The notes under the pieces are model-generated. The model searched no databases and was not told the DNA's origin. It worked only from the letters and a program-made list of their open reading frames with translations. A DNA stretch of 64,000 nucleotides from a virus (Duplodnaviria; Caudoviricetes): positions 64,001 through 128,000 of the IMG/VR virus record IMGVR_UViG_3300021256_000056; one strand, 5' to 3'. How positions within the stretch are numbered: the first letter of the stretch is position 1; each line of letters starts with the position of its first letter. A program made the position numbers and the translations under genes. This document shows, piece after piece, positions 9,101-64,000 of the stretch.

Positions 9101-11974
9101 AGCATAGTTTTTCGTTGTTGAGCTCCAGTCATCGGGATGTTCGGCTTTACCAGCTTCGTAGGTGGCTTGGTCTATCTGTTCGTACTCATATTCCTGATAA
9201 TCAATACCATCTATATCGCAGAAACCATATACAGATTCTGTTGATTTATCGTTATTAAAGTTATATTTTCCGAGGAACTTCCAATCAGTATCGTCCATTG
9301 AATAGCGGTAAAATACAACGCATGGGAATCCGTCAACGGTTGTACGAACGTCCATGTTGTTCGTGGGGTCGCTCATGACAACAGCCTGTGCTCTGGTCCT
9401 TGAAACGAATTTTCCTTCAAGCGTTGCATCCCTCATTACTTGGTTCCAAAATCTTGCAACACCCGTATTGTGTGATGAAGATGATTCGGCAAAGTCGGCT
9501 TTAAATGTCCAGCAGTTAACTGCCTGGGCTTTTCTTTCACCTTCAGAAAACGTACCTTCTAAACCGCTCTTAAATGCGACCTTACCCTTACCAGGTTTGG
9601 ATGGGTTAATCTCCTGCCCTTCTGGTGAAATTTTGTCTATTGTTGACGTTGTACCCGTATATGTTATAGGTAATGGCCACTCCCCGTATTTTCCTTTAGC
9701 CTTATCTTTGATGTAGAGCCTGAGGTTTTTCTTGGGGTAGTTCATTGATGATGTACCCTGGCATGTCATTTGAGGATATTCCACCAAGAAGTTTGTAATA
9801 GGGTCTAGGTTGTTGATATATTGGATACGTCTAAGAAGGATTGGTGTACTCTTATCAACAGTGGTAAAACTCATTAAGTTTTCTATGTTATTCCTTGTCT
9901 GGTCATAGTCAGTAATGAGCAACATTGGAAGGATACTTGAAATAGCATCCATATCAAATTTACCGCGAACAGCGTAAACATCATTCCTGTCGTAGATTTC
10001 CTTCATCTCTTGGAAGGTGTTCCTATATAACATATAATTATTAAGGATGTCGTCCGCGTCAAGTGCGCGATTATAAATGCGTATTTGTCTGATTTTAACT
10101 CCAGCTTCAGCGGAACCTTCAATTCTGATGTATTTATCGGCAGCAAAGCTTGATGTTGTCCTATTGTATCCCGCAGCACCACAAGCAGCACCATTTACAT
10201 ATATGTAAATAAGTGGTTTACCTGCGCTTTCGGGGTCAACGACGAAAACAATACGGTTGTTTTCACCGCTTTTGAATTTTGTTGACACACTATTAAGTGC
10301 ATTATCGTTAAATATTGCTTCAGATGCTGTTAACGTAATACCTGGCATGTTAACGCCGTCATTCTTTATATTACAAATTACAGCGTCATCATTTGATACA
10401 TTAAATGTAGAGAACTCTATTTCAAAAGTTAAACCGTCGTCCTGTATAGTGCTCGTAAGCGGTTTGCAGTTTACTTCAATTGCATTGTTGTTTGATATGA
10501 TAAGTTCGTCGTTATTCCATCCAGAGGTATCGTCCCAAGTAAAATTATAAAACGTTGTGCTATAAACTTCACTACCGTTATCATATTCCCATATCTCCCT
10601 GTCTTCGGGATTATTGGTCTTACCATTGGCGCGTAAATTAAGAATCAAACCAGCAGTAATTTCGTAAACATTAAGTTCATTCTTCTCAATTGGCGCACCA
10701 ATTATATAAACAGTTGACTCGACGCCGTCGTTGGCGATGATTTTAATTCTTGTTTCACCGCTGACTGTTGGGCTAACCGTTGCATCCCAAATTTGGCCTT
10801 CTTCTACAGAGTTGGTATATGAAACATCCACCTTCTCAATATCTCCGTCTGTATAGCAGACTTGGACCGTTGTGTTGACGTTTGCAACGTTAGGTTTATA
10901 TACGGCCACTGGAAGATTAAATGAAGTGTATTGTACTACGTCATAAAGAACTGGTGTTAAATATGTTTCACCAGTAAATGGGTCATAACCAATAGGTATT
11001 TCAAGCGCAGCAGCAACTATTGGGGTCTCGCCACCGTTTGATACGATAAAATCCCTATAATATGTTGGTGTATAGAAACGTTTTTCGTTTATGACCAACC
11101 ATGCGCGGTATTGTATGTTGTGTCTGCCTTCGCTAAAATCTCTTGAATTTATACCGATGGTTTTGGTTAAATTTCCACTTTCCTGTCCACCAGGGATTGG
11201 GTCGGGCGCGTCTTGTAAAATGCCGTCAACATACCATTCGATAAATTTATTAACGGTCGATGTTCCCGTCACGCCCCAGACGATTGTGAGGGTTGAAGAT
11301 TTTCCATCGGAGACGTCGTGGACTCTGGCAATATTAATGTTGTCAACTACCCTTAAATTAATTACTTGATAAATAACGGTTGTATTGGCAATAGCGTTAC
11401 TCGTACCGCCAACCGCATTTATGGCAACAATATTTTGACCTTCTGTTAAATAATTGTCTACTGTAAGCCTGTCGGTTTCGCCTGCTTGCGCAACGTGCGT
11501 GACAAATGTCTTTGAGCCGTCGGGGCGAGTAATGGAATAGTTAATGTTAATAACTTCAATAAGAGGATTATCATCTTTATCGAATGTTTCAACTTTAAAT
11601 ACCACTTCATTACCTGTTTGCCCAACCAAAATTGCGTTTGTTGGTTGTGTATGCTCACTATCCAGTGTAATCACAATACGATAGTTTGAATAACTGTTCA
11701 TCTCAGCAAGTTTAAGTGCTGCGATTTCAGGGTCCATGGGGTCATCATCCTCATGTTCCAGATAAATGTTACATGATTCTTCATCAGCAAAGATATAATA
11801 TTTACCCTTGCCATTATCGTGGATAAATCCCCACTTACTATCAAGACCGCCCTTAATGAAATTTTCTACACTCTCACCATCGGCAGCGTCATATATAACA
11901 CCGTCTTTAATAAGTGGTCCACCCCACTTGTCGTGTTTATTTAATTCACCAGAATAGATATTCTTTTTAGCCAT
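3134..11974 (-). CDS. Giant tail-associated protein: Ig-like / LamG-like / CotH-family kinase / LRR / BspA-type LRR
   Basis: LamG-like segment (LTFEIEF...IYIYVNG...IRIYNRAL). CotH motifs QGTSSMNYPKKN, RTTVDGFP, GKYNFNNDK, DQVVKN, YDNDT. Many IG..AF..C..L..I.LP BspA repeats at about 4150-5950. Confidence 0.75.
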   Translation of the reverse strand: MAKKNIYSGELNKHDKWGGPLIKDGVIYDAADGESVENFIKGGLDSKWGFIHDNGKGKYYIFADEESCNIYLEHEDDDPMDPEIAALKLAEMNSYSNYRIVITLDSEHTQPTNAILVGQTGNEVVFKVETFDKDDNPLIEVININYSITRPDGSKTFVTHVAQAGETDRLTVDNYLTEGQNIVAINAVGGTSNAIANTTVIYQVINLRVVDNINIARVHDVSDGKSSTLTIVWGVTGTSTVNKFIEWYVDGILQDAPDPIPGGQESGNLTKTIGINSRDFSEGRHNIQYRAWLVINEKRFYTPTYYRDFIVSNGGETPIVAAALEIPIGYDPFTGETYLTPVLYDVVQYTSFNLPVAVYKPNVANVNTTVQVCYTDGDIEKVDVSYTNSVEEGQIWDATVSPTVSGETRIKIIANDGVESTVYIIGAPIEKNELNVYEITAGLILNLRANGKTNNPEDREIWEYDNGSEVYSTTFYNFTWDDTSGWNNDELIISNNNAIEVNCKPLTSTIQDDGLTFEIEFSTFNVSNDDAVICNIKNDGVNMPGITLTASEAIFNDNALNSVSTKFKSGENNRIVFVVDPESAGKPLIYIYVNGAACGAAGYNRTTSSFAADKYIRIEGSAEAGVKIRQIRIYNRALDADDILNNYMLYRNTFQEMKEIYDRNDVYAVRGKFDMDAISSILPMLLITDYDQTRNNIENLMSFTTVDKSTPILLRRIQYINNLDPITNFLVEYPQMTCQGTSSMNYPKKNLRLYIKDKAKGKYGEWPLPITYTGTTSTIDKISPEGQEINPSKPGKGKVAFKSGLEGTFSEGERKAQAVNCWTFKADFAESSSSHNTGVARFWNQVMRDATLEGKFVSRTRAQAVVMSDPTNNMDVRTTVDGFPCVVFYRYSMDDTDWKFLGKYNFNNDKSTESVYGFCDIDGIDYQEYEYEQIDQATYEAGKAEHPDDWSSTTKNYATVEALEAAVRDKVGKKAPEPLTEMDYILTLCPTAYEYSKTYQEGKATIAEEPYLALYAQKIMTAGDVKNKNYCVEVLENENRVTNFIADVSEFDSDWDKGFEFRYPEVDKDIPDADTKGGLTNLREFYAWCHSTMETSDAFTPGMTISICGETRHNEDLVYKQAEQYYAANGNYVVNTYEDFLNYQKLKFEKEKWDYLDIFKMAAYYVYLMRFGAVDQVVKNSMFTSEGTVSYIAITTASGSDTGGTKTVTVKYEETIGNHCKWFYINYDNDTILGLNNDGQLVYKPDIDRNSRTGSGSWIEYAEPTTAQTAACIGEYDTYDDLIHAQKTGEIHPNSGDMYKVGDEVYEWSNESGYAYAGHSSVLWNNLEADGEFMTIVSDIDNALYVAGLTYDNALTMFNTKQANMWCERILNKDANFKYIESYTIQGLNHLGKMQGPRSSHRAWWLSKRFTYFDSKFVSGDYKNKKVLFKADAPIERGDDPLKFTLLPTEFMNYGWGITNRSNGQTGIPSTKKPDGTFNYLTFDVKDGGMAALAQGDPVEIYATPYISELDLSNFAPYLMVLDLSGVQHDVLGSQLKKLILGKPGKVNRGTSSLKPSDLTGIEKAEKLEYIDMQGFENLTSLDLSQNPNVKEVYAFRSGLLAIVFANGSRMEKLSLPACYNTLLLNGVNYLAANKIAFENDDMSKVNNLQIVNCDALKETSIDILKKWYGQKDDALANTIVRFEGFDWVITYDDLDMFEALKNNCDSFNLRGTITISDNIQGDTREETVQRVQRIKDLFGVNCFDKTKNPPVLVTCRLPFVIIDSDKTVVTARQDTVVNYSCEIYPNREPNSYVVFEIVRGEEYDTRTGVTIESDSENATAVLTTEELITGEDNNLTIRVTYWWEGSNQFTSEINLLVKDPTYPMSSTGLTISGASSIKKENRYFYDLEVLGPDEKDATGTYTVEWTFDNMSSPYIDYDNCGVVPGNQNRYVVATSTQEPETSANIHLIANVVPVNGSPVSKSFKLLILNEDVIISIESNPVVMNVASAAGWASDPNVLTKSEALDVTDIGTVFANLVSDAFTFDEFAEFVNVKTIQENAFMNCNVTKLTLPKDIETIGQGAFQGCDGLTEIDFGQNTKLTTIPRFCFYQCQSLSKVILPASITKIEQYAFGGTRNIQHLAVSGTEISKNVVVVPNTLTTIVDGAFETFSSTDTGNVINIDCGLVSVEIPAKLGLISDGKLDKYMLRGENITAFTVNDKSTTYVAVDGVLYNKTQQTIYKYPCGKSDLTTYTTLDNCITLYDYSFYNTQLEHITLNRIITQFGQHVFAFNNNLLDIDMSLSTSLKVIGNYAYQNCVALTAITYPTSLEEFGNHIYERCDAMTDIVIPNTVKTVGNYFIVECNNIESLELPDSITTVKRVIDPRNPDCFMKSCHNLKYIKFPKYLTLEYNSADDMTSLTAVTLPVASYNIEEGGEIHSVVVNATSFSNRHILGGKTADAGKLLEYRIPEEDSGEIFETYEGSIYSVPDKQIVNVPFGISVLNMKPGTISVKGGDNMTNGGGAVAKCVHMTEVNFSDTLTTIGEYGFTQCTSLRSITLPESFTTTAGRCFADCTSLSSATFEKNYKNIGSELFNGDRNLRSVVFKSNLSGGSLGYAAFNNCSKLSALTMAFMSVPTIPNGGNVSRGYNPFGTLDADLDFTGSAPLSRIPSSFIGYETRKDGVNTLKVAYFTNPEGTKTSLELYREANRWGDPLFTPATDQVLRGTCTYEELIKKTWGKIDNPTQEEIDACIGAYDTFKNLVKAVTDGEINPAIGDMYKVGEGDKTIVYVWGERLSLDDVWRVSDRDNNYYGWDGEQWQSLGRIFNGSEFNIEYLTFADDIYIKLYSGGSEYNYDGTDTTQIPYADEINMGIYQTSGEFAGYYKFSFGGDVISNKPITITKGAAGDMFGTIRPLAFEEHVYELSANLMGITRFKATSPSEEPTVSKYDYDVLVSKFNSLDTKVRKLLGK

Positions 11975-30013: not shown

Positions 30014-30490
30014 ATGAATAGAAAACTTACTGAAGCTAGCCAGGAGTATGTTGACCTGGTAAAATCTGTTGCTGAGGAAATCGGTATTGGACGTTATGTC
30101 GAGATGAACGTTTTCAACATGATTAAGTCATCTAAGGATGTTATCAAGGTTAAGAAGACCTCCGAACCCCTCGAGGTTAAACTCGACGGCGAGGATATGA
30201 TTGACGTCTATATCTACGAAGAGGCGTTCGACCTTGTGGAAGAATCCACCAAGAGGTTCTGGATTGAAAACGCCCTCTGCCAGGTCGCCTACGACATGGA
30301 AAAGGGTAGAGTTATTATCGGTAAGGAACCGACCATTACCGCACCCCTCGGCATCCTTAATAAGTATAAGGATGAAGCCGTTAGGCAGTTGGAACTTGCC
30401 AGCCTGACGGTTCAACAAATAAATGATGCCCTGAAACAGAAAAAAAAGGAAGAACGGCAGTCTAAGAAGAAAGAGAAAAAAAATCAATAA
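30014..30490 (+). CDS. Hypothetical protein, possibly a degenerate phage metallopeptidase-like fold
   Basis: VYIYEEAFD...FWIENALCQV aligns by eye with the HExxH helix region but lacks His/Glu ligands. Confidence 0.6.
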   Translation: MNRKLTEASQEYVDLVKSVAEEIGIGRYVEMNVFNMIKSSKDVIKVKKTSEPLEVKLDGEDMIDVYIYEEAFDLVEESTKRFWIENALCQVAYDMEKGRVIIGKEPTITAPLGILNKYKDEAVRQLELASLTVQQINDALKQKKKEERQSKKKEKKNQ

Positions 30491-30492
30491 AC

Positions 30493-30520
30493 AAAAAGCG
30501 ACACCCTTGGTGCCGCTTTT
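30493..30520. terminator. Bidirectional terminator ending the baseplate operon
   Basis: AAAAAGCGACACC-CTT-GGTGCCGCTTTT. Confidence 0.8.
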
Positions 30521-30523
30521 ATC

Positions 30524-33500
30524 TTAAGTTAGTGGTAGTGGTGAAAATCCATCTCTATCAACTTTAAAACCTTTATTATTAATGTTGGTTGCCGTTATTC
30601 CTGTGTCGGTCATTTCGAGAGTATAGCCACCAACGGTTACCCTAAAATTGGTGTTACCATTATTATCCAAATAATATTGCAATAAATTTGTACCAATTGT
30701 CTTAACCTCGATTCCGTTGGAGCCAATTACCACGGTGGGGTAAGCTGACTCGGGTGTTATATCTCGCCTTATTGTAAATGGGTAGCTACTTAATTGTATT
30801 GACGTGGATGCGCTAGCCTCTCCGCCTTCACCATATAACTCCACTGCACCCACTGTTGCGCGTATTGACACCGTAATAGTAATCTTTCCATCACTTATTT
30901 CCTCAAATTTTGCCTTTAACGGAATCGAAAACGACTTGCTCGTAAAATTACTGATACTACCTACTACTACATTATTTAACTTGATTGTTCCTTCTGTTTG
31001 TCCAGTAACATTTTGACCCTCGGAGTTAAAAGTGCTTCCAATACGTATCTCGGGGTCACTTCCGCTCATCCACAAATCTCCGCTTTCTTTATAAAGCGAG
31101 TATTCCCAGTAAAGTGAGACGTGCCCTGTTTCACCGCTATATTCTCCGCGCCACTTATAGGCTACAGCCGTATTCGATATCCATGTACCTTGTCTGGATA
31201 ATTCCCCGCTTCTTGAACCGATTTCTGCGCCTTGTACCCAATTTTCGTTTACCATTCCGCCTATGGTATTTGTTATTGACGTAGTTGAGGCTGTGGTTAT
31301 TCCCACCTTTCCTGATGAAATATTTATTACAGCCCTTGAATTTCTATCATTTAAGCGCAAATAATTGTCATTTTTTAATGTAATATTACCGTCCAGTGTT
31401 GCATTATTAATGCTGGCATTATTCATGTTTGCATTTTGTGATACAAAATTTCCGCTTGTGTCGACAACAAAGTTACCATTACCAATTGAAAGTGAACCAC
31501 CGTTGATTGTTGCACCTGTAATTATACCACCATAAATATTACTACCTGTTATGGTACCTTTTATTTCTGCACTATTTGTTTTTATGTGTCCGTCTTCATA
31601 TATAATAGTGTTGGCAGATACGCTGACTCGGCTTTCGGGCCCCTCATTTTTAATCCTTATTATTTCCCAATCGCTGAAAACAGCTCCGTCTTCCGATGTT
31701 GTCGTCGCCATCCATATAGCCTCGGCTCCTAAAAATTCTAGTGGCGTATGGAACCAGTTACTCTCTGCCGCTTCGGCCCACCAATCATTTATGAAATCGT
31801 TGGCTGCAGCTTCATTAAAATTGGGTGGTATTGGGGAATAGTCTTCAAGCCAACAAAATATACTACACCTATACCCCGCGCTACCAGTCTGCCAGGTTTT
31901 CTGAATGGCTGGCCAAGAGGCGCCTCCTGTAGTCCTATCATCTCCGTAGAAAGTTTTATTTGTAACATATACTATTACTTCATTAACGTCCACGGCTTCA
32001 CTGCTGTCAAGTTTTGGGCTGTCCATCCAAGTAATAACGTGGGTAAGGTCTTGGACCACTCCGCCAGCCTCTTCTCTATAAAACGTTCCCGTTGGGAGGG
32101 GGTTGTTGTAGGTTCCGCCAGTTACGAAATAATTGCCATCATCAAGATTGTGTATGTCTTCTTCCTCTCCTTCCTCCTCATCTACTGGCCTTATTTTTTG
32201 GATTGCAAATGCATAACTCGTCTTAATTCCGATAAAGGAGTCTATACCAGAAGCAAACATTACTTTTCCATGTGTTTCATCTAAAAAATGTTCGCTGGCA
32301 TTCATCATTGCCTTGAGGTTTTCATTTTCATCACGAACACCTATAACTTCCCTAAGTAATACACCTTCCTGGTTGTCTATTTGAGTTTCAGTAAAAGCAC
32401 TACGAAGATATTCCAGCCCCTCGACGCTCCCTGGGTCTCCCTTATCACCCTTTACCTTTACAATATTCCAGTCTGCGTCATTGAAGATACCGTTGGTACC
32501 ATTGATTGTTGCCATGAATATTGCACCATTAATACAGCTGCTGGCATCATCATACCAACCAGCGGTATTTGCTGATGCCCACCATGCGGCACTATTATCA
32601 AAACCAACGGGAATGGGGTTATATGTGCCATCGTTGTTTCCTGATGAATATGCGGCCTCAAAATCAACTGTATCTACCATCCTCGTGGGTGAACTCCAGT
32701 TCCCAGTTTCGCTTGGCGTGGTAGAATATCTTCTTGTTACCATCCATATAACCCTGTCTCCGCTGACAGTGCTTGGGGTATCTGTCCAGTTTACTGTGTG
32801 AGGCGTTGTCCCCGTTGGTGCAGGATTATTATAATCACCACCGCTTACTGTATCTTGACTAAGGTCGATACTTTCCTTTTGTGAGGTGAAATAAAACGCC
32901 GTGTATGAACCGTCAGCCCCATCTTTACCATCCTCTCCGTCTTTTCCGTTCTCAACAAACTTTGATACTACAGACCATTCGCTTGAGGTGATTGTATCGT
33001 TCTCGCCTATTGAAATCGCGGTTGCTCTTGTTGTATAGCAAGGTAAAAGGCCATCAATAGCGGGCATATCTTGGGTCCAACCACTTAAATTTCCAGAAAG
33101 AATACCAGTTGCAAATGTATATAATAAATTGGCTTGCGGAACTGAAGGTATTGTACTGTCGCGTTTATATAGTGTTACGGTCGCCGAATTTAGGCCGTTT
33201 GTGCCATCTGCACCGTCTTTAGAGAGTTCTACTGGCGTAGCCCACTTTGTGTGTTCAATAGTTTGTGTTGTCCCAGTACTATAAACGCTTGCTGCCGTTA
33301 CATAGACAGGTTTATTTGTTTGATAAGCAGGAAAATCCCTGCTCCAGCCATAGGGTACACTATCGAGGGTGTTTGTAGTGAAATCATATGTTATGGCGTT
33401 TGTCCAATCTATCGTCGCTACGGTTTCTGACCTCTTATAAAGGTATATCATTGCGGAGCTATAACCATTTTTGCCTTCATCGCCCCGCTCGCCTTTAACC

Positions 33501-36936: not shown

Positions 36937-39834
36937 TTAATTACTTCTGTTATTTGTTGATTCTTCTTCAATGCTATACTCAAACAACGTTGTTGCTGGT
37001 ATCAACTGTTTCAGATAAAACAACACTTTATTTGTTATAAAATCTCTATAATTTCTTTTATCAATTTCTCTGGCGCTCGCATCTGTCCTGAAATGACTCG
37101 TTGGTTCAATAAATATAATGGATAACCGCTTTGAATTGATAATTGAATTGGCCGCAGATATATCATTATTTTCACCGCCAGTTTCGGGATTATAAGGCGT
37201 TGCTGAATTATTATCAAACGTAATTGTGACGCCAGTATTTTCTTCCGTTGCAGTAATTGGAATTGTGCCGTAATCATATTTATAATCCGTTGCGGCGCTG
37301 AACATGACCTCTCTCACTTTCTTATCATCAGTCACCGCTTCACCTTCTTCAAGGTCTCTAAGCCTGTCTGTAAAATACCAACACTTTTTGTTATCAACTA
37401 TTTTATCGAGGCGCCCATCCGTATTATCTACGCTACTGGTAAAAGAACAGGCTGTAACTTCTAATAGTTCCTCGTCTGAAAGTGTTGCAAAATTTGCTTT
37501 TTCTATCGCTGGGTTAAACGGGTGGAACATTGTTTGCATGTATTCTCTACCGTCATCATAACGACTATGGCCCATGTGGGGATTATTCCCTTCTGTGTTA
37601 TCCACTATTGACTCGAGGTAATAAACCTTTTTTGCTTCTTTGCTTAGCGTCCCTGCAGTACTTTCAATCTCTGTAAGCGGAACGCATTTCCATCCCATTG
37701 CTGTGGTTGCGCTGCCGTCAACCGTGACATAGCCAAGGGTGCTTGAATATGTATCGTCCTCCAAATAGAAGTAGTGTGATGCATTATCAACCGTTAAGCT
37801 TGTATCTGAGCCAAAAGAATATTTTTCTGCAAGACCGCTTAAGTCGGTTACATAACAAACGTTATCTGTTCTAACGATTGCACGACCTAATTCTAGCATA
37901 TCATCCAAAGTTGCTGCATACTTCAAATCGCTTATTGTTTCATTATATAATTTGAAGTTTGCGTCGGATTCGATATATTCTCTATATTGACTAAAGTCGG
38001 TATTGTTTACTTTCATTTTATCCGTCCTTCCCCAGCCACCATTCATTTGGAAATATAAATCATTGTCATATGTACGCCCATTTTCATACCATGGCACAAC
38101 ATATGAATAATCTTGACCCTCAACCTCATAAAAAATCTTTTTTAAAGGTAAACCGTATAAGGCGTCGTCGCCCGCCATGTCAAAATTGTATTTACGTCTA
38201 TTATATGATGCAACCTTTTCGTATGACGGATATGTCGATGCTGTGCTACCAGGGACTGGCGCGGGGCCAGCGAGGGCGATATACTCGCTTATGATAAAAT
38301 CACCAACATTCTCTGTTGGCTTAAATTCCTTTAACCCAAATAAACCCAATAAAGATACTAACCCCTTCTTGGTTCCTTTCATCGAATGAAGATATGAACT
38401 GTTTACCCTTAGTCTTCTGTAGAATTCACTATTTATTCCGTCCTTATCATATAATATGTTTCCACCATCATATGAAACGGATATTAAATCAAGCATGTTG
38501 TTTACCGAGGTGACCTCCCATCCACTGTTCTTTAACGTGGTGGCCAGCGCGTTATCGGGCACATTATTTTTCTTGTTGTACGTAACATTACCTGATTTAG
38601 ATATTACATCTGCAAACCTCTTTAAGTCATCATATTGTCTTCCATAGACCTTAAGTATTGGTTCTATTTTTGTCGTATCGATGGTTTCGAATTCGATTGT
38701 GTCATCGCCTTTCTCTCTGGTGAAAGTCCAGTCGAGGTTCTTAATTGCCTCGTGCGTCATTGAACGCCAGATATTGTCACTATCAAACTCATCGTGATAT
38801 GACGCTAAGGCGATGAGGCTTTCAAGATAGTTCTCATACGCTGCATTTGAAATGTCTGGGTTCCATCCATATGTTGTTGGCCAAATATAATTCCTCTTGT
38901 ATGTGAAAAATCCCTTTTCGGTTTCATATGGCGTATTAAAAGTCGCCATGTATAGAGGATTGGTATCTCTATTTAGAAGAACTCTCACAAAATCACTTGC
39001 ATTATCAAAGAACTCATCTATGTATGTTTGGTTCGGTCTAATTCTATAACCAACCTTCGTGATATCGCTGTGAAGTAGGGTAATATCATCTCCACGTTGA
39101 TATGCATATATGGTTAATGTTTCCGCAACATTTCCGTTCTCTGTAATAGTAATAACTGCATCGGCAATTATTGTGCCGTTGCTTATCTCCTCACAACTTC
39201 TGTTATAATGATGTATTGTTATTTCAGACGGACAAGATTCATATGCAGCAAAACTGTTACCAGTGTTTGTTATTGGTTCAAATATGACATATTTATTGAG
39301 ACTTTTTGCAAGATAACGCAGTTCGTTTTCTACGGTTTCTTCATCCACATCTTCCGTAATAACGTCAATGCCATAATCATTTGAAACCAAATAATAGACG
39401 CTCGCCGTACCGCCAGTAACCTTCTCGCGGAATTCTTTATCCGTAAAATAAAGTTCTGCAGGGAAATTTAATAGAACTTCTACAACAGACGCTTTTACAA
39501 GATTAACTGCAGAGCCATAATAGGCGAAATCCTTCATTGACTCGTAGTCGGGATTTAACCTTGTGCCAGTTTTCTTTGGCGTAATATTCTGTTCATTCCC
39601 AGCTTCATAATCTGGTATCCACCTACCATTGTTGTGTTTCTTCTGTTCATTAAGTCCAGACCTGACCTGAAACTTAAAGTTATTGATACCATATACCTGC
39701 CTTTCGGAAGGGGACATCGCATCAAACGATGAAACCGTCATAAAATCCCTTTCAAATACGGTTCCACCAGAAGTCTTTTGATGTTGACTTCTGTAAACAT
39801 AATTAGATTTACTTTTTATGTATTTTGATGCCAT
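36937..39834 (-). CDS. Baseplate/tail structural protein
   Basis: FAYYGSA, YGRQYDDLK, KGTKKGL..LLGLFG (tail-protein-I-like motif), YLKQLIPATT C-terminus; lies in the baseplate operon. Confidence 0.6.
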   Translation of the reverse strand: MASKYIKSKSNYVYRSQHQKTSGGTVFERDFMTVSSFDAMSPSERQVYGINNFKFQVRSGLNEQKKHNNGRWIPDYEAGNEQNITPKKTGTRLNPDYESMKDFAYYGSAVNLVKASVVEVLLNFPAELYFTDKEFREKVTGGTASVYYLVSNDYGIDVITEDVDEETVENELRYLAKSLNKYVIFEPITNTGNSFAAYESCPSEITIHHYNRSCEEISNGTIIADAVITITENGNVAETLTIYAYQRGDDITLLHSDITKVGYRIRPNQTYIDEFFDNASDFVRVLLNRDTNPLYMATFNTPYETEKGFFTYKRNYIWPTTYGWNPDISNAAYENYLESLIALASYHDEFDSDNIWRSMTHEAIKNLDWTFTREKGDDTIEFETIDTTKIEPILKVYGRQYDDLKRFADVISKSGNVTYNKKNNVPDNALATTLKNSGWEVTSVNNMLDLISVSYDGGNILYDKDGINSEFYRRLRVNSSYLHSMKGTKKGLVSLLGLFGLKEFKPTENVGDFIISEYIALAGPAPVPGSTASTYPSYEKVASYNRRKYNFDMAGDDALYGLPLKKIFYEVEGQDYSYVVPWYENGRTYDNDLYFQMNGGWGRTDKMKVNNTDFSQYREYIESDANFKLYNETISDLKYAATLDDMLELGRAIVRTDNVCYVTDLSGLAEKYSFGSDTSLTVDNASHYFYLEDDTYSSTLGYVTVDGSATTAMGWKCVPLTEIESTAGTLSKEAKKVYYLESIVDNTEGNNPHMGHSRYDDGREYMQTMFHPFNPAIEKANFATLSDEELLEVTACSFTSSVDNTDGRLDKIVDNKKCWYFTDRLRDLEEGEAVTDDKKVREVMFSAATDYKYDYGTIPITATEENTGVTITFDNNSATPYNPETGGENNDISAANSIINSKRLSIIFIEPTSHFRTDASAREIDKRNYRDFITNKVLFYLKQLIPATTLFEYSIEEESTNNRSN

Positions 39835-53627: not shown

Positions 53628-54014
53628 TTATAGTTTTATTGCAACATTATTCTGTATTTCGCTTAGGCCTTTCTTTACGGTATAGAGCACACTCACTATT
53701 TTAGAGTGACTATCTTCATCTTCTAATATTTGAATGTCATCTAAATTAACGTTTGGAATTCTTGATTTAATGCTAGTTCTAATCTCTGTTTTAATGCCCT
53801 CAAAGGTTTGACTATCGCTAGGATTAAATATGAATCGTACTAAATCGCTGCCGAACTCAGGGTCGCGAATGCGCTGTTTTTTGGGTGTGAAAATAATATG
53901 AAGGATTTGTGATTGTATGGAATCCTCGTAAGTCTCATTGAGGTCCACATAAACCAAATCCTCATTATCATAAGTAAAGGGGTATTTTATACCGTAATTT
54001 TGTGTCTTGGCCAT
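53628..54014 (-). CDS. Baseplate wedge/sheath initiator (T4 gp25-like)
   Basis: GIKYPF, IIFTPKKQRIRDPEFGSDL..FIFNP. Confidence 0.85.
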   Translation of the reverse strand: MAKTQNYGIKYPFTYDNEDLVYVDLNETYEDSIQSQILHIIFTPKKQRIRDPEFGSDLVRFIFNPSDSQTFEGIKTEIRTSIKSRIPNVNLDDIQILEDEDSHSKIVSVLYTVKKGLSEIQNNVAIKL

Positions 54015-54032
54015 AATTTCATTTAATTACCA

Positions 54033-54041
54033 ATAAATAGT
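54033..54041 (-). promoter_or_regulatory. Putative late promoter ACTATTTAT heading the baseplate operon
   Basis: Exact motif 18 nt upstream of ATG 54014. Confidence 0.7.
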
Positions 54042-54054
54042 TTCCTGTGTATTT

Positions 54055-54942
54055 TTAAAAATGCTTTCCAACCCAATACATTTTATTATCAATGGAATCC
54101 TTGGAAACTTTAATACCCGTCATTTCTTCAATAAGTTTTAGCTTTTCAGGCGTTTTTTTATTATATCTGAAATAGCGCTCCGCCATATCTTTTTTTTCTT
54201 CAGCGTTCCTTGGGGTGTAATCGGGGAATCCCCTTTGAATTTTCTCGCAGTATTCTTCGGTGCTTTTTGTCGTATAGTGTTTTAGGTATGCCATTGAGAA
54301 GTCATATTTCGCAAACGGAGACACACTATTGGGAAGCTCTCTACCAATACTATCGCAACAGGCTAAGATTGTGGAAGGTGTATGTGAGTTTTTGGTCCAC
54401 TTTATCTCAATATCATCAATATAACCCCTTATGACGCTTTTAATATGGTTATTTTCGCCGAAACTAAACTTAACAATAAAATTGTAGGGCGTGACGGGCT
54501 TCTTGAATCTTTCTTGAACGGGCTTATCCTCATACCTAAGGCAATCCCCGTCACCATAACACATCCAATTGATGTGCACCATATCATAATCTTCGAACCT
54601 CGCGTCCGAGAAATATGTGGGGATGTCCATCCTTTTATTCCTAAACTCTAGAAATTCATCGCAATCAAAGAATGCAATCCAGTCATATTGGTCCTTATAG
54701 GTATTATAACACTCTTCATACGATTCCCACTGGCAATATCTTTTACCTCGATAATTTTTTAATATGACAAACCCTTCATCAATGTAATCTCCGATAACAT
54801 CCTCAAAGTGCTCTCCGTCAATATCATTATTATCAAAAAGACAGATATTGGCCGCGTTAAGCTTCTTATAATGCTCAACATATTCCCTTATATAGCGATT
54901 TTCGTTTTTGCCGATACAGCATATTAAAACTTTGGTGTCCAT
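54055..54942 (-). CDS. Glycosyltransferase (GT-A fold; GT2_4/GT92-like)
   Basis: KNENRYIREYVEHY, LFDNN, WIAFFDCDEF (DxD), IKSVIR, LKHY.TKS. Confidence 0.85.
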   Translation of the reverse strand: MDTKVLICCIGKNENRYIREYVEHYKKLNAANICLFDNNDIDGEHFEDVIGDYIDEGFVILKNYRGKRYCQWESYEECYNTYKDQYDWIAFFDCDEFLEFRNKRMDIPTYFSDARFEDYDMVHINWMCYGDGDCLRYEDKPVQERFKKPVTPYNFIVKFSFGENNHIKSVIRGYIDDIEIKWTKNSHTPSTILACCDSIGRELPNSVSPFAKYDFSMAYLKHYTTKSTEEYCEKIQRGFPDYTPRNAEEKKDMAERYFRYNKKTPEKLKLIEEMTGIKVSKDSIDNKMYWVGKHF

Positions 54943-54991
54943 AATGATAGTACTTTTTAAAAAAGTACCCTGATAGTACTTAAAAGTAAAT

Positions 54992-55019
54992 AAAAAGCCA
55001 AGGCTTCTCTTCCTTGGCT
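54992..55019 (-). terminator. Intrinsic terminator between the two GT genes
   Basis: AGCCAAGG-loop-CCTTGGCT-TTTT. Confidence 0.7.
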
Positions 55020-56508
55020 ACATCATTATTCCATTCCAACGTTTTATTTTAGCGCGGCTACTTGTAATATTTCTAATTATTGGCTTGTCTTGTGCTATGG
55101 GCTTTTTTTCTTTCTTAACTATTGGCGCTTTGTGGCCTGCGGACCAATAAAAAGTTTCACATTTGAATATGCTGGAACTTAAGAAATTAACCTTTGCGTT
55201 TGGTATTTTCCAAAGAACATAATTGAATGATATCTGGTCCCTGTGGCTCTTTACTTCAATCTCTCTCCACCACATTTCGTCTATTTTTTTACATTCGGGG
55301 TCATTATGGTATCTCAAAAGAATACCTGTTTGTACCATTCCGTTATGTTCTGGATATCCTTCTGCTTTATAACCTTCTACTTGTGGGCCCATTATTTCTT
55401 TTGTATCTTTTTTATAGCGTAAGCATGCCTCAAATTCGTCATAAACACAGTCTCTTTGTGGGTGGAGCCCTACCGAGAATACGCCTCTTTCCTTTGGACA
55501 ATTCTCTTCCACATAAAATTCGACGCTTCCCCTTAGTTCAACATTGGCATCAACCCATACTGAAAATTCGTAATCAGGTAAATATAAATGGGGATTAACC
55601 TTTATTTTCCGTTGTTTCTTGACTTGGCTAAGTCCTTCTGTATCTTTAGGTAATGGTCTTATCTCCCAGAAATTACTTGTTATATCCTGGTCGGTAAAAC
55701 AAATGTAGTCAAATTCTGGGTCTACAAACTTTGGTTCTTTTAGTGTGTCGTAATTACCACTGATACATGTATAAATAACCTTTTTCTTGGGGCTATCCCA
55801 TGCCCTTCTAAATTGTGTAAGCCATGCGTCTTCATTTTTATAAGCCCCAAATTTCCTATTTGCTAAATCATTCCAACTACCACCCTTAAAATGTGTGATA
55901 TAATCCTTACACCTTATTCTTTTGTATTTGTATTTAGATGCGTTAATAAAGAACGCGGCGCCAGTATCATATTCGTCACATTTTGGGTTTTTTGCAGTAT
56001 TTCTCAGACCGTGCATATATGCATCGTCGAAATAATGGATACCCTTCTCTTTACAGAGCTTGCTGTTAATGTAGCATATAAAAGGTAAAACTCGCTCATG
56101 TCTTGCTGGATATGCTTGCATTTCCACTTCCCCAACAAACACACAGCTTTCATCTACAATGTCACTAAAATCTTTAAGCACTAAAATATCACTGTCCATC
56201 AAAATAAATCCATTAGGAAAAAGCTCCATGCATTTTTCAATGGTATAACAATGTTTTGCACTTCCCCATGCATTTACCTTTGCACTAGACTTTAAACTGT
56301 TGGGATATTTTTTGAGCCATTCATCGAAATTGATTATCTGCCCCTTTGTGTTATCGATAATTTTTACATTTTTAAAATTACTCTTAAACGGCTCCTTGTC
56401 GCTGTTGTCAAAAACATAAATATCACACCCAGGAGTATGCTTGTTTATACTCCTTATGGCATAATCAGTTAATTTTTGCGTATTATAATTTACTATACAA
56501 ATATCCAT
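55018..56508 (-). CDS. Two-domain glycosyltransferase (GT2-like + DUF616/TOD1-MUCI70-like)
   Basis: N-domain IVNYNT, VFDNS, LMDSD, YDTGA. C-domain VIYTCISGNYD, CFTD, WVDAN, HPQRDCVYDE, RDQISF. Confidence 0.85.
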   Translation of the reverse strand: MDICIVNYNTQKLTDYAIRSINKHTPGCDIYVFDNSDKEPFKSNFKNVKIIDNTKGQIINFDEWLKKYPNSLKSSAKVNAWGSAKHCYTIEKCMELFPNGFILMDSDILVLKDFSDIVDESCVFVGEVEMQAYPARHERVLPFICYINSKLCKEKGIHYFDDAYMHGLRNTAKNPKCDEYDTGAAFFINASKYKYKRIRCKDYITHFKGGSWNDLANRKFGAYKNEDAWLTQFRRAWDSPKKKVIYTCISGNYDTLKEPKFVDPEFDYICFTDQDITSNFWEIRPLPKDTEGLSQVKKQRKIKVNPHLYLPDYEFSVWVDANVELRGSVEFYVEENCPKERGVFSVGLHPQRDCVYDEFEACLRYKKDTKEIMGPQVEGYKAEGYPEHNGMVQTGILLRYHNDPECKKIDEMWWREIEVKSHRDQISFNYVLWKIPNAKVNFLSSSIFKCETFYWSAGHKAPIVKKEKKPIAQDKPIIRNITSSRAKIKRWNGIMM

Positions 56509-56513
56509 CAAAA

Positions 56514-56522
56514 ATAAATAGT
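56514..56522 (-). promoter_or_regulatory. Putative late promoter ACTATTTAT
   Basis: Exact motif 5 nt upstream of ATG 56508. Confidence 0.7.
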
Positions 56523-56531
56523 TTGGGTAAT

Positions 56532-56555
56532 AAAAAAGGTGGTATTAACCACCTT
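56532..56555 (-). terminator. Intrinsic terminator after nrdG
   Basis: AAGGTGGT-TAAT-ACCACCTT-TTTT. Confidence 0.8.
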
Positions 56556-56559
56556 AGAA

Positions 56560-57078
56560 CTACATTTTAGATTTTTTCCAAAAACTGGAAGTTATATCCG
56601 TCCAGGTCTTCCTTAATTTTCCGTCTACAACTATTGCCCAAGAATAGTACTTTCCGCCCATGTATAGCCTCTGGTTCGTTGTTTCTTTGTTTAACGGACC
56701 AAACTCTGACCTGTATGGCCCAATCTTTAGATAATTTAAGTTGTCCCAGAAGAAATCGTCGTCAATGTGCTCTCTTCCCGAATATAGGCCAATTTTTATT
56801 TGTGGGTACTTCTCGGAGATGTATTTTATCCTGTTTTTCAATGTTTCCTCGTCATTTCCTTCGCCCATAAAGCAAAAACAAGTAATCCCTTCATTTTTTG
56901 CTATAAGCTCGTCTATGGCCTTTTCTGTGAGTTCTTCGCCAATATTTTGTTTGAGGTAAGCAGAGTGGCAACCAACACAATTATTCTGGCAGTTACTTAT
57001 ATTTACTGCCAGAGTAATTTCGTTGGGTATTTCTTCAAAGACAATAGACGTATCCTTGGGTATATACTTTAACGCCAT
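56560..57078 (-). CDS. nrdG: Anaerobic ribonucleotide reductase activase (radical SAM)
   Basis: CQNNCVGCH CxxxCxxC, MGEG, GPY...TTNQR; coupled to nrdD. Confidence 0.92.
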   Translation of the reverse strand: MALKYIPKDTSIVFEEIPNEITLAVNISNCQNNCVGCHSAYLKQNIGEELTEKAIDELIAKNEGITCFCFMGEGNDEETLKNRIKYISEKYPQIKIGLYSGREHIDDDFFWDNLNYLKIGPYRSEFGPLNKETTNQRLYMGGKYYSWAIVVDGKLRKTWTDITSSFWKKSKM

Positions 57079-59258
57079 TAAATATTCTCTTTTGTATAAT
57101 ATCTCATGTGCTCTTCTTCCTGCCTTGGTTCGCTAAATGACGAGACCTTTTTAAGGTACCCAATAATACGTGTCAAGTAAGAAAGGTTTTTGCTGCCACA
57201 CCTTGGGCACGTGTCGAGAGTATGTTTGCTAATATAGCCACAATCTTCACAGCAAGTATTCTTTACATTGAAGGTAAAATAATTTGTTCCAAGCTTCGCG
57301 GCCATCTTAAGGATTTGGCGGTATTGTTCCTTAGATAAATGTTCATTTAAATTCATATGTAGAGCTGAACCTCCATCAAGATATTTAACAAACTCTTTTC
57401 CGTGAAGTTTAAACTTATCAATGATTGATAGGCTGTCGTCTTCTGGATTATAGAAATATGAGCTATACATTATATGCTTAGGTGAAACGTAATAGCCGTC
57501 TTTCTTGTCCCAGTTGTGGTGCTTTACTGCCAAATTTTCTGCGGGCACAAACTCGGTATTGAACATGCATTCCCTTGTCTTGTCTTTCTTGTTGCAAATA
57601 TTGATTGTTTCAAGAACGACATTCACAAAGTCTTCGTATTCACTATTCGGCGTGGCTTCCATCCCTAAGAACTCAGCGGCATCGGTGATTCCGTTTACTC
57701 CTACTGTGAGATACTGTTTCTTCATGTCAATAAAACCAGCGGAGTAAACCGTTAACATATTGGCATTGTAAAAGTCCTTTATAATTGCGTTGAAAGATGT
57801 AAGATATTTATGTACACGCTCGGTAACTTCGGTAAGATACTCCTTTATGTATGCATATACCTCTTCTTTTTTGACATTCTTCTTGAGTTTTTCTCCTCTC
57901 TTATATTCAATACCCTTATCCTCGTAGAATTTAAAGGTTGCGTCTTGAATTGCCCTGTTGAGGTCGATGGTCATGACACATTTTGAACCTGTTGCAACAG
58001 ATGCGGTTCCCATTGAGAACTGGTGTGTTGTGTGATTGTGTTCCTCGTCGGCGGAATCCTTGAGGGAATTACGTAAACGGCAGCAACTTGAAAGGCTATC
58101 AGGGCTGTCAGATAAGTAGCAGAAGAAACTATGCCCTTCGGCCCACATCTCAGCGGTAAAATCTGCGTAATCCTTATCAACAAAGTCGTCGTTACCATCG
58201 GTAAGCATTGCCATAGTTTCGACAGGGAAGGTGAGAACGTATCTTTCCCTTTCTTTGTTAAACCACTTCATGAATTTCTTTTGAAGCCATGAAAGTGTTT
58301 CCCATACGGGTTTTGTCCCATCTGGGAATACGAAATCTCCAAAAACCCCTTCGAAATACGGTTTATCAAAATAAGAAATATTCCAAAAGACTGTTTGGTA
58401 TCCGCGGTTACCAGCAGGCATATTCATTGAATGTACTACCTGCTGAAAACTATTTTCTATTACCTGTTCGAGTGTTCTGCCCTTTCTGTTCAATTCCACC
58501 TTTTGACTTAGTTTTGTCAGATAGTCATCGCCGTAATCCTTACGAATAAAATAATCCATGTACATGAGAAATTCGGGCGTTGCGACGGCTCCCATAAATT
58601 GGGATGAAACAGAATAGACCAAGTTGATGAATTCTCCACAGAATGACTTTAGGTCGGTCGGGGCAACGGAAATCCCTCCTAATTTCTGAAGGCCATCCGT
58701 TAAGAAGGGGTACATCGTTATAGCCACACAGTATGGATAGCCTGGAGTACCACTTTCGTCGTGACGATAAATAATGTGGTGTTCGAGGTCATATATATAC
58801 TGGTCAGCAAGTTTCTTACTATAAAGCTTCTTAATTTTATTGTGCATTATATAGCGATTCTGCTGAATGTTTTCACCCTTGTGAATTTCCTGGCCTAAGG
58901 TGACAATGTTTTTATTAGAAACATTGGCATTGGCATCATATTTAGAACCAGTGGCAGCATTCGATGCATCTATATAATTCTGAACAAAGTCATTATTCTT
59001 TTTAAGAAAATTCTGGTCGTTTGCTTTGTCGAGATATTTTCTGGCGACCTTTTTGTTGATTGACATTAGGGCTTCTGAAACCTGTCTCTCTATCTCGGAT
59101 GTCGATATGTTGTCATATATATACAACCCATCCGCTATTGCGTTTAAAATGGTTTCATTGCATTCACAGTCCGCAGACTTGTATGCTTCGCAAATACTAT
59201 TTTTAACTTTTTCCTTATCAAACTCCTCGTAGGAGCCGCTACTTTTCTTTACAATCAT
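57078..59258 (-). CDS. nrdD: Class III anaerobic ribonucleoside-triphosphate reductase
   Basis: N-terminal ATP cone, PYCVA, SCCRL, EFVPAENL, CEDC/CPRC zinc site, TRIIGYL glycyl-radical loop. Confidence 0.95.
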   Translation of the reverse strand: MIVKKSSGSYEEFDKEKVKNSICEAYKSADCECNETILNAIADGLYIYDNISTSEIERQVSEALMSINKKVARKYLDKANDQNFLKKNNDFVQNYIDASNAATGSKYDANANVSNKNIVTLGQEIHKGENIQQNRYIMHNKIKKLYSKKLADQYIYDLEHHIIYRHDESGTPGYPYCVAITMYPFLTDGLQKLGGISVAPTDLKSFCGEFINLVYSVSSQFMGAVATPEFLMYMDYFIRKDYGDDYLTKLSQKVELNRKGRTLEQVIENSFQQVVHSMNMPAGNRGYQTVFWNISYFDKPYFEGVFGDFVFPDGTKPVWETLSWLQKKFMKWFNKERERYVLTFPVETMAMLTDGNDDFVDKDYADFTAEMWAEGHSFFCYLSDSPDSLSSCCRLRNSLKDSADEEHNHTTHQFSMGTASVATGSKCVMTIDLNRAIQDATFKFYEDKGIEYKRGEKLKKNVKKEEVYAYIKEYLTEVTERVHKYLTSFNAIIKDFYNANMLTVYSAGFIDMKKQYLTVGVNGITDAAEFLGMEATPNSEYEDFVNVVLETINICNKKDKTRECMFNTEFVPAENLAVKHHNWDKKDGYYVSPKHIMYSSYFYNPEDDSLSIIDKFKLHGKEFVKYLDGGSALHMNLNEHLSKEQYRQILKMAAKLGTNYFTFNVKNTCCEDCGYISKHTLDTCPRCGSKNLSYLTRIIGYLKKVSSFSEPRQEEEHMRYYTKENI

Positions 59259-63241: not shown

Positions 63242-64000
63242 CTAGGTAACATTGTGGTTTTTGATATAATCAATTAGTGTACTTATATCCGTAAAAACTT
63301 TGTTCCCGCTTACTTCATATTTCTGATACTTTTGTTCCATGAAATAAATTAATTCGATACCATTTTCTTTGCAAAGTTCCCTCTTGCGTGCATCCCGCTC
63401 TTTGCGAATTTCCAATGTTTCTCTTTTATCAAATAATTCTTTTCTTAAATAATGTTGTGACCCCTGACATTCAATAGCGCACTTTATACCTGGTATATAA
63501 AAGTCCAAACTGAGTGGTGATAACCATTCGAACTTTTTTTGAGTGACATATTCTATTTTGGCTTCTGCTGCTTCTTTTTCAAAAATACGCTCTAATTTTG
63601 GTTCTTGACACTTTGGACAACCGTGGCCTCTTAAGAAATCATGTGGAAGTGTTTCAAAATCTCCGTGTTCTTGACATGTGACAACAACTTTATCCCTTGC
63701 GTGTGTATAATGTGTTTTCTCAAAAGTATACTTTCCTTCTGGGTACACAGCCATTGCTTCTGCAACCCATTGTTCTGTTGTTTTTTTTCTCCCGTTACAC
63801 CGCGGACATCTAAACCCCTGTAGGTGTGAATATGGCATCTGCCAAAAAATACCATGCTCATTACCTAATACATCTTTTTCATGGCAAACAATCGCAACCT
63901 TTGTTTGAGAGTCAACGTAATCTACTTGAGAATAATCATACTTATCCCCATGTCTTTTACGCGCTTTTTCTATAAATTCGTCCCTCGTGTACTTACTCAT
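63242..64000 (-). mobile_element. Free-standing homing-endonuclease-like gene (Zn-ribbon repeats + Vsr/DUF559-like nuclease); start at window edge
   Basis: Two KY.(Y/F)...Y...KV...C..HG.F...P...L.G..CP.C repeats; LDFYIP...AIECQG.QHY. Confidence 0.7.

Follow-up and report, generated by a model that had tools for sequence, protein, structure and literature searches.

An accessory glycosyltransferase cassette in the nrdG/gp25 slot of a giant gut phage, with virion proteins as its tentative leading acceptor

Introduction

What do glycosyltransferases (GTs) encoded beside the baseplate genes of a giant phage modify? The locus that raises this question lies in a 64,000-nucleotide stretch of viral DNA (hereafter the window), bases 64001-128000 of the 195,095-bp record IMGVR_UViG_3300021256_000056, whose completeness CheckV puts at ~53%. 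Here, two adjacent minus-strand genes, encoding GTs of 496 and 295 amino acids (aa), are located between nrdG and the baseplate gene gp25. An earlier note on this DNA had proposed that they head the baseplate operon and O-glycosylate tail proteins at a sequon of their own, (S/T)-G-x-(T/S). We find that the pair is an accessory glycan-building cassette in a variable slot, that the motif looks like a structural feature of the fibres, and that virion proteins are, tentatively, the leading acceptor.

The phage is a giant gut/rumen myophage with a genome well over 195 kb. Its myophage gene set includes sheath, tape measure, gp25, portal, and large terminase (TerL), and complete relatives have genomes of 360-412 kb. 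The host is probably a Gram-negative-type gut anaerobe. Coordinates follow window numbering unless marked "record", and absences from the record are limited by its ~53% completeness.

Two genes with three glycosyltransferase domains

The minus-strand gene order is nrdD, nrdG, the 496-aa gene, the 295-aa gene, gp25, and a baseplate-J-like gene. The features of the locus are as follows.

57078-59258, minus strand: nrdD, upstream of nrdG
56560-57078, minus strand: nrdG-like activase, upstream border of the variable slot
55018-56508, minus strand: two-domain glycosyltransferase, 496 aa (Pfam PF04765, invariant motifs, AlphaFold2 model)
Residues ~1-215 of the 496-aa protein: N-terminal GT2-like GT-A domain, DxD motif D105-S-D107
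Residues ~242-460 of the 496-aa protein: C-terminal DUF616/TOD1-MUCI70 GT-A domain
54055-54942, minus strand: GT92-type (Glyco_tranf_2_4) glycosyltransferase, 295 aa (Pfam, predicted fold, DxD motif)
53628-54014, minus strand: gp25-like baseplate wedge gene, downstream border of the variable slot

The open reading frame (ORF) of the 496-aa gene spans 55018-56511, with a likely start at the ATG at 56508. The C-terminal half of its product matches Pfam PF04765 (TOD1/MUCI70) at 61 bits (cut-off 21.4) over residues 304-443, a match that covers only positions 150-295 of the 314-position profile, and the protein also matches phrog_26101 'glycosyltransferase'. The N-terminal half has no significant Pfam match, the GT2 profile included (best match DUF6734, E = 0.019). 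Alignment of this half shows the GT2 hallmarks VNYNT, FDNSD, and D105-S-D107 to be invariant in 20 homologues, and the AlphaFold2 (AF2) model of the whole protein contains two GT-A domains, with an overall predicted local distance difference test (pLDDT) score of 86 and ~90 over residues 1-210. The best fold matches of the model are two-GT-A enzymes, namely LH3, LARGE1, GlyE, PmHS2 (heparosan synthase 2), and Mimivirus R699, the last of which is weak (TM-score ~0.23 across the whole 496-aa protein). By its fold, the fusion seems to resemble enzymes that alternate two different sugars.

The 295-aa protein passes the gathering cut-offs of both PF01697 (GT92; 41.7 bits, cut-off 23) and PF13704 (Glyco_tranf_2_4; 39.9 bits, cut-off 27.5). 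Its DxD motif is D93-C-D95, and both aspartates are invariant across 26 homologues. The AF2 model is a GT-A fold with a pLDDT of 94, and its top PDB fold match is poplar GalS1, a GT92 enzyme (E = 2.5e-9, TM-score 0.50, identity 12-13%). PDB sequence searches with the two GTs returned no matches, and neither protein has a transmembrane (TM)-like segment. All three domains of the two genes are thus GT-A folds that are soluble, keep an intact DxD motif, and have no membrane segments. This bears out the description in the earlier note of three GT domains, carried by a two-domain gene with a late motif (box at 56514-56522) and a GT2_4/GT92-like gene upstream of gp25: Pfam recognizes two of the domains, and the invariant GT2 hallmarks together with the GT-A fold identify the third.

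The C-terminal tail of the 496-aa GT (residues 464-496, window 55018-55116) is Lys/Arg-rich and disordered and terminates in a conserved W/Y-N-x-(I/M/L); similar tails are kept across homologues. This basic tail might anchor the enzyme to membrane, to nucleic acid, or to some component of the virion. The presence of a phosphoribosyl pyrophosphate (PRPP)-synthetase-like gene led us to ask also whether the DUF616 domain is a PRPP-dependent ribosyltransferase of the Cj1432C/CriT type. We rejected this candidate: the paper on those enzymes makes no link to TOD1/MUCI70, and Pfam places the PRPP/NAPRTase genes of the phage in nicotinamide adenine dinucleotide (NAD+) salvage, which weighs against it. 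Separately, the 5' part of the GT92 gene (window 54641-54933) has 71-74% DNA identity to 15 Prevotella Lak megaphage records. Such similarity suggests that giant phages not related to one another have exchanged the gene, or that they have a host group in common.

An accessory cassette in a variable slot

Whether the GT pair is a fixed part of the genome can be read from the nrdG/gp25 slot of relatives. In five of them (L014-L018), recognized via the baseplate-J-like protein at 45-51% identity, the slot lacks the cassette and neither GT has a homologue anywhere in the records; one of the five, G005, is complete at 380 kb and has terminal repeats. RmlA was not found in the four cassette-less records searched, complete G005 included. 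Upstream of gp25, the five relatives carry nrdG, an intein-bearing class-I ribonucleotide reductase (RNR), or ClpP. The class-I RNR of L017 and L018 has a LAGLIDADG insert, and in L016 (3133-9027) nrdD is split at residue 393 by ~1 kb and a DnaB-like helicase at ~211 by ~1 kb, interruptions that are probably inteins or introns.

In other relatives (L009-L011, L027, L037, L044, and L046-L048), the same slot holds from 1 to ~8 GT-type domains plus TupA-type ATP-grasp domains. That of L027 contains two TupA-type ATP-grasp, four DUF616, two GT92, and one DUF4422 domain, along with an acetyltransferase. The nrdG-GT-GT-gp25 junctions are retained in near-identical strains (~95-97%) that come from three or more further animal-gut studies.

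Proteins that combine a GT2-like and a DUF616 domain form a widespread family that is essentially phage-only. A near-length search found 694 relatives at E <= 0.001, typically 45-57% identical and many of them on 355-417 kb contigs, and the nearest Atlas clusters are all viral. In 185,579 species genomes, relatives were limited to the DUF616 half (35-47% identity; Methanosphaera, Bacteroidales, Lachnospiraceae, and others), and the one cellular exception for the two-domain form is a 2.5-kb contig binned in a rumen metagenome-assembled genome. A survey of 48 viral loci places the homologues in at least six neighbourhoods.

nrdG/nrdD-gp25 junction: 9 loci and this phage
Primase / 265-aa gene: 9 loci
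Adaptor-like / tail-region gene: 6 loci
Portal-LRR (leucine-rich repeat) fibre junction, with the two domains in swapped order: 4 loci
Beside DNA polymerase: 2 loci
Sugar islands with RmlA/RmlD or acetyltransferase: 8 loci

Adjacency to gp25 is weak evidence for virion glycosylation, because the cassette is absent there in five relatives and homologues occur in at least five other neighbourhoods.

We also looked for membrane partners. Within 10 kb of the GT, proteins with at least eight TM-like segments are lacking in 43 of 44 viral loci. The sole viral locus with a candidate is L056 (4587-7037), where an 816-aa protein with ~10 TM-like segments lies 3 kb upstream of a DUF616 and GT92 pair on a 194-kb viral contig. 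Near cellular DUF616 genes, ORFs with at least eight TM-like segments are found in 22 of 53 loci, which is uninformative against an estimated background of ~50% per 16-kb bacterial window. Cellular DUF616 genes seldom (0-3 of 76) have homologues of the phage Rml, GT92, and acetyltransferase genes as neighbours, so their context gives no acceptor clue. A 252-aa zinc-ribbon-like protein is encoded at window 63242-64000 and has many paralogues in relatives (L011, L023, L026, L030, L038, L048, and L052), often between GT cassettes and neighbouring genes; this family may be mobile or shuffling-associated.

Transcription signals around the cassette

When would the cassette be expressed? The 9-nt box ACTATTTAT occurs 11 times in the window, compared with 1.19 expected, and 35 times in the record, and most copies sit ~22-31 nt 5' of a same-strand start codon. 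It precedes the genes for portal, TerL, gp25, an adaptor-like protein, and the 728-aa fibre, and is absent before nrdD, DnaB, exonuclease, and DNA polymerase. By association only, ACTATTTAT is a late-type promoter candidate. Around the cassette, the signals are as follows.

56536-56555, minus strand: terminator-like hairpin after nrdG, 8-bp stem then T run (-14.8 kcal/mol, z = -4.0)
56514-56522, minus strand: late-type box ACTATTTAT of the 496-aa gene, 5 nt before the ATG
54996-55019, minus strand: terminator-like hairpin over the stop codon of the 496-aa gene, 8-bp stem with 5 GC pairs, then T run
54945-54979, minus strand: two GTACTATCA copies with an AGTACT palindrome just 5' of the GT92 gene, the only two in the 195-kb record
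54033-54041, minus strand: late-type box ACTATTTAT of gp25, the baseplate unit's own promoter

The first hairpin looks like the terminator that closes the nucleotide-metabolism unit upstream of the cassette, and the 496-aa gene is a self-contained unit of terminator, late-type box, gene, and terminator. With hairpins on both sides of the 496-aa gene and a separate box for gp25, the GTs stand beside the baseplate operon and not at its head, where they had been placed. The late timing ascribed to them also needs division: the 496-aa gene has a late-type box, but the GT92 gene has none. The GTACTATCA pair is a possible separate control element.

Other sugar genes in the record

The record encodes further genes that could serve glycan synthesis.

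Record 31858-32373, minus strand: rmlC, in a row with rmlD and rmlA
Between rmlC and rmlA, record 30034-32373, minus strand: rmlD
Record 30034-30939, minus strand: rmlA
Record 38833-39321, minus strand: hexapeptide-repeat acetyltransferase, 162 aa
Record 176623-177390, plus strand: core GT2, 255 aa, syntenic in relatives

The row rmlC-rmlD-rmlA probably represents a deoxythymidine diphosphate (dTDP)-L-rhamnose route. In relatives, RmlA/RmlD homologues adjoin GT islands, and homologues of the acetyltransferase (65-81% identical) are found inside the GT islands of L027, L041, and L045. The core GT2 has 43% identity and the same flanking genes in cassette-less relatives, all relatives checked keep it in synteny, and it is, as far as sequence and gene order indicate, a conserved glycosyltransferase of the phage family.

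The [ST]G.[ST] motif of the fibres

The sequon had been drawn from instances of [ST]G.[ST] in virion proteins, every one of which is present. We counted the motif in a fibre-like set of seven proteins (728, 2134, 965, 671, 1026, 1332, and 2946 aa; 9,802 aa together), encoded at these positions.

865-3051, minus strand: 728-aa fibre, 9 [ST]G.[ST] sites
3134-11974: 2946-aa LRR protein, counted as the seventh fibre-like protein
30524-51432, minus strand: fibre/baseplate-distal block (2134, 965, 671, 1026, and 1332 aa), with most other motif sites

These proteins contain 46 sites, compared with 20.8 expected from whole-protein shuffles and 22.7 and 24.1 from local shuffles over 40 and 20 aa. None of 300 shuffles reached 46, so that the fibre enrichment survives controls for both composition and local context. 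The motif ranks first among 1,611 reduced-alphabet three-position patterns (Poisson 2.6e-6, ~4e-3 corrected) and exceeds the 30.3 sites that pairwise preferences predict. Among the 11 other orderings of its letters, only G[ST].[ST] is raised (38 vs 22). Most of the excess is TG.T (21 vs 6.4) and SG.T (13 vs 5.3), with a flanking preference for Thr (-2 and +5) and for hydrophobic residues (-1). All remaining proteins are slightly depleted (32 vs 41-43 expected), and other virion proteins (sheath, tape measure, portal, and others) have no clear excess.

PHROGs returned no matches for the fibre proteins, and Pfam only BspA-type LRRs, a ConA-like domain, and weak BACON/CarboxypepD matches. The 2946-aa protein, with at least five BspA-type LRR stretches and a ConA-like lectin domain, is a receptor-binding candidate of a kind unusual for a phage.

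A sequon used by the cassette should follow the cassette among relatives. Counts in all proteins of at least 650 aa, genome-wide, were as follows.

G005 (complete), cassette absent: 120 observed vs 47.6 expected (2.5x)
G006 (complete), cassette in the nrdG/gp25 slot: 126 observed vs 53.0 expected (2.4x)
This phage, cassette present: 55 observed vs 32.0 expected

Enrichment is thus equal with and without the cassette, and in the genes downstream of gp25 it lies with the cassette-less loci (40 sites vs 19.1 expected) rather than the cassette-bearing ones (11 vs 13.8). The sites are not position-conserved between orthologues and are located in variable distal parts. In the 728-aa fibre, residues 85, 172, 259, and 362 occupy the equivalent place of a ~87-103-residue repeat, and the first three are L-x-x-Φ-SG-x-T, one per ~87-residue unit; the sites of G006 recur in the same form. 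A 1,145-aa protein of G005 (203464-206901), which by its sequence looks like a beta-helix-type fibre, has 37 sites spaced 7-8 residues apart in an SGSTxxxx tandem repeat. Given these tandem repeats, the L-x-x-Φ-SG-x-T shaft breaks, and the non-conserved positions, the motif looks structural, and we infer that it may be a Gly turn or break punctuating the fibre-shaft repeats of this phage family. The fibres of T4, which are not glycosylated, were used as a control for effect size only. They contain 13 [ST]G.[ST] sites vs 12.9 expected and a 2.1x excess of G[ST].[ST], indicating that a twofold excess of an S/T/G pattern needs no sequon. We therefore rejected a dedicated (S/T)-G-x-(T/S) sequon for these GTs in favour of a cassette-independent structural feature of the family's fibres. 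What stands of the proposed phage-encoded O-glycosylation pathway is its glycan-synthesis genes (three GT-A domains, rmlC-rmlD-rmlA, the acetyltransferase, and the core GT2 as a fourth GT), and what falls is its sequon.

Candidate acceptors

To which acceptor would the glycan be attached? In the mechanism we favour, the cassette GTs would act late in infection and in the cytoplasm, where they would extend a sugar chain together with the family-conserved GT2, the phage RmlA/C/D, and the acetyltransferase. The acceptor would be the surface of virion proteins, fibres or head, whose assembly coincides with this activity in both compartment and timing. Virion proteins are our leading candidate, slightly ahead of host surface polymers, with a probability that we put at roughly 0.35. 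The late-type box on the 496-aa gene and the lack of TM-like segments in the GTs are in line with it, as are the surroundings of the GTs, which in 43 of 44 viral loci contain no flippase- or polymerase-like proteins, and the parallels with mycobacteriophages and rhamnose-pathway giant viruses.

Several observations weigh against a virion acceptor. The box of the 496-aa gene is unusually close to the ATG (5 nt, compared with the usual ~22-31), and among homologues in relatives a late box lies within 120 nt in only 3 of 25. Many homologues adjoin primase or DNA-polymerase genes and not virion genes. For RmlB, no second epimerase/dehydratase was found in the ~53%-complete record, and RmlA is present in only one of the five complete GT-bearing relatives, so the rhamnose link is not general and donor sugars probably differ between phages. 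Finally, longer proteins fuse DUF616 only to glycan- or polymer-synthesis domains (Stealth, TagF-type Glyphos_transf, RgpF, TupA ATP-grasp, GT1/2/8); there is no virion domain among these partners, which fits surface-polymer chemistry equally.

The closest rival is indeed remodelling of the host envelope, in which the cassette, the Rml enzymes, and the acetyltransferase would alter a capsule, lipopolysaccharide (LPS), or other surface glycopolymer via host lipid-linked intermediates, so as to block superinfection or keep progeny from sticking to debris. The families and fusion partners (Stealth, TagF-type, RgpF, TupA ATP-grasp, DUF4422, GT92) belong to capsule/teichoic-type polymer synthesis, the two-GT-A layout matches the alternating-copolymer synthases LARGE1 and PmHS2, and GT content varies sharply among related phages, as it does in surface-glycan loci. 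Iyer, Anantharaman, Krishnan, Burroughs, and Aravind 2021 read 'capsular polysaccharide modification' clusters of jumbo phages, mainly cyanophages, with GTs and nucleoside diphosphate (NDP)-sugar genes, as host-surface modifiers (PMC7824862). However, the late-type box suggests expression too late for rebuilding the cell surface, 43 of 44 viral loci have no flippase-, polymerase-, or priming-transferase-like multi-TM protein close to the GTs, and the phage looks strictly lytic in the ~53%-complete record, though no integrase search was made. We rank a host-surface acceptor close behind virion proteins.

GT-A enzymes that modify host proteins exist, and the cassette could act on a host protein or small molecule in takeover or counter-defence, or be cargo without a role. 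We consider this unlikely: the multi-GT islands with acetyltransferase and ATP-grasp genes in relatives point to an elaborate glycan, not a single sugar, and the cassette is retained in near-identical strains from several studies.

Less likely still is DNA hypermodification, in which the GTs would glycosylate modified bases and thereby evade restriction. Phage GT-A and GT-B enzymes that glycosylate 5-hydroxymethylcytosine (5hmC) are common (bioRxiv 10.1101/2023.12.21.572611), the cassette adjoins nucleotide-metabolism genes, with homologues beside primase or DNA polymerase in some relatives, and the predicted basic tail of the 496-aa GT could bind nucleic acid. But the described DNA GTs depend on either a ThyS-type hydroxymethylase or a C5-methyltransferase with 5mYOX (bioRxiv 10.1101/2023.12.21.572611), and PF00303 (thymidylate-synthase-type hydroxymethylase), PF12851 (Tet/JBP dioxygenase), and PF00145 (C5-methyltransferase) are absent from the ~53%-complete record, in which ThyX is present. 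In addition, the late-type box points away from modification at replication time, and at least three GT domains with a rhamnose pathway exceed the described DNA systems compared.

The sequon-directed O-glycosylation of tail proteins proposed earlier, despite the top-ranked fibre enrichment, the slight depletion elsewhere, and the lack of this pattern in T4 fibres, is hardly credible against an enrichment equal or stronger without the cassette, unconserved positions, repeat-bound spacing of 7-8 or ~87 residues, and the excess of the permuted motif in unglycosylated T4 fibres.

Relation to known systems

The cassette belongs to an already known class, the accessory phage glycosyltransferase cassettes. 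Glycans of giant viruses (Mimivirus fibrils, chloroviruses) are virion-bound and draw on the viruses' own rhamnose route. This phage has a similar sugar-nucleotide route to rhamnose and multi-domain GT-A enzymes, with R699 among the fold matches, but giant viruses infect eukaryotes and the R699 match is weak. Mycobacteriophage GTs glycosylate the C-termini of capsid and tail-tube subunits, as shown experimentally (Freeman et al. 2023, as described in PMC12619734 and PMC11256854). The cassette resembles that system in having phage GTs that occur in only some related phages, lie beside structural genes, and would act in the cytoplasm; it differs in that the families here are GT92 and DUF616, and that the host is probably a Gram-negative-type gut anaerobe.

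Like the clusters of Iyer et al., the cassettes are sporadic and polymorphic, with paralogous GTs accompanied by NDP-sugar nucleotidyltransferases and epimerase/dehydratases. Those clusters come without promoter information, whereas here one GT has a late box and the cassette is small. Gtr-type O-antigen modification, a system of temperate phages with a GtrA flippase and GtrC, differs in that the present GTs have no TM-like segment and the slot has no multi-TM ORF. T4 alpha/beta-glucosyltransferases and metagenomic 5hmC GTs are likewise phage GT-A/GT-B enzymes near nucleotide-metabolism genes, but in this record no companion hydroxymethyl-pyrimidine enzyme was found. With plant GalS1 (GT92) and TOD1/MUCI70 (DUF616, putative pectin GTs), the phage proteins share Pfam family, GT-A fold, and DxD motif, although identity to GalS1 is only 12-13% and the DUF616 match is partial.

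Implications

Known targets of phage GTs are DNA, host surfaces, and, in mycobacteriophages, virions, and most metagenomic phage GTs have no known target. To this field, the present locus contributes a large two-domain GT family that is essentially restricted to phages, a defined variable slot between nrdG and gp25 in which giant gut/rumen phages swap glycan genes, and a case in which the top-enriched 'sequon' of fibres can still be structural.

A broader and more speculative proposal, which we hold with still less assurance than either leading acceptor, is of a phage-made glycan coat, varying from strain to strain, on the virions of this gut/rumen phage family (genomes of 360-410 kb). The conserved GT2 would prime the glycan, and swappable multi-GT cassettes would elaborate it late in infection. 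Acetyltransferase and ATP-grasp amidoligase-like genes would belong to these cassettes, and some genomes would add a dTDP-rhamnose pathway of the phage's own. Taken furthest, the proposal would make the conserved GT2, and not the cassette, the enzyme for which the family-wide (S/T)-G-x-T excess of the fibres serves as acceptor, against which the repeat periodicity argues.

If the acceptor is the host surface, the cassette would be a lytic-phage form of serotype conversion. If it is the virion, the cassette would bear on how stable the phage is in the gut, how it adheres there, and how the immune system recognizes it, and a glycan coat on these virions, if true, would be a phage equivalent of the fibril glycans of giant viruses and the first case of virion glycosylation among phages of gut anaerobes.

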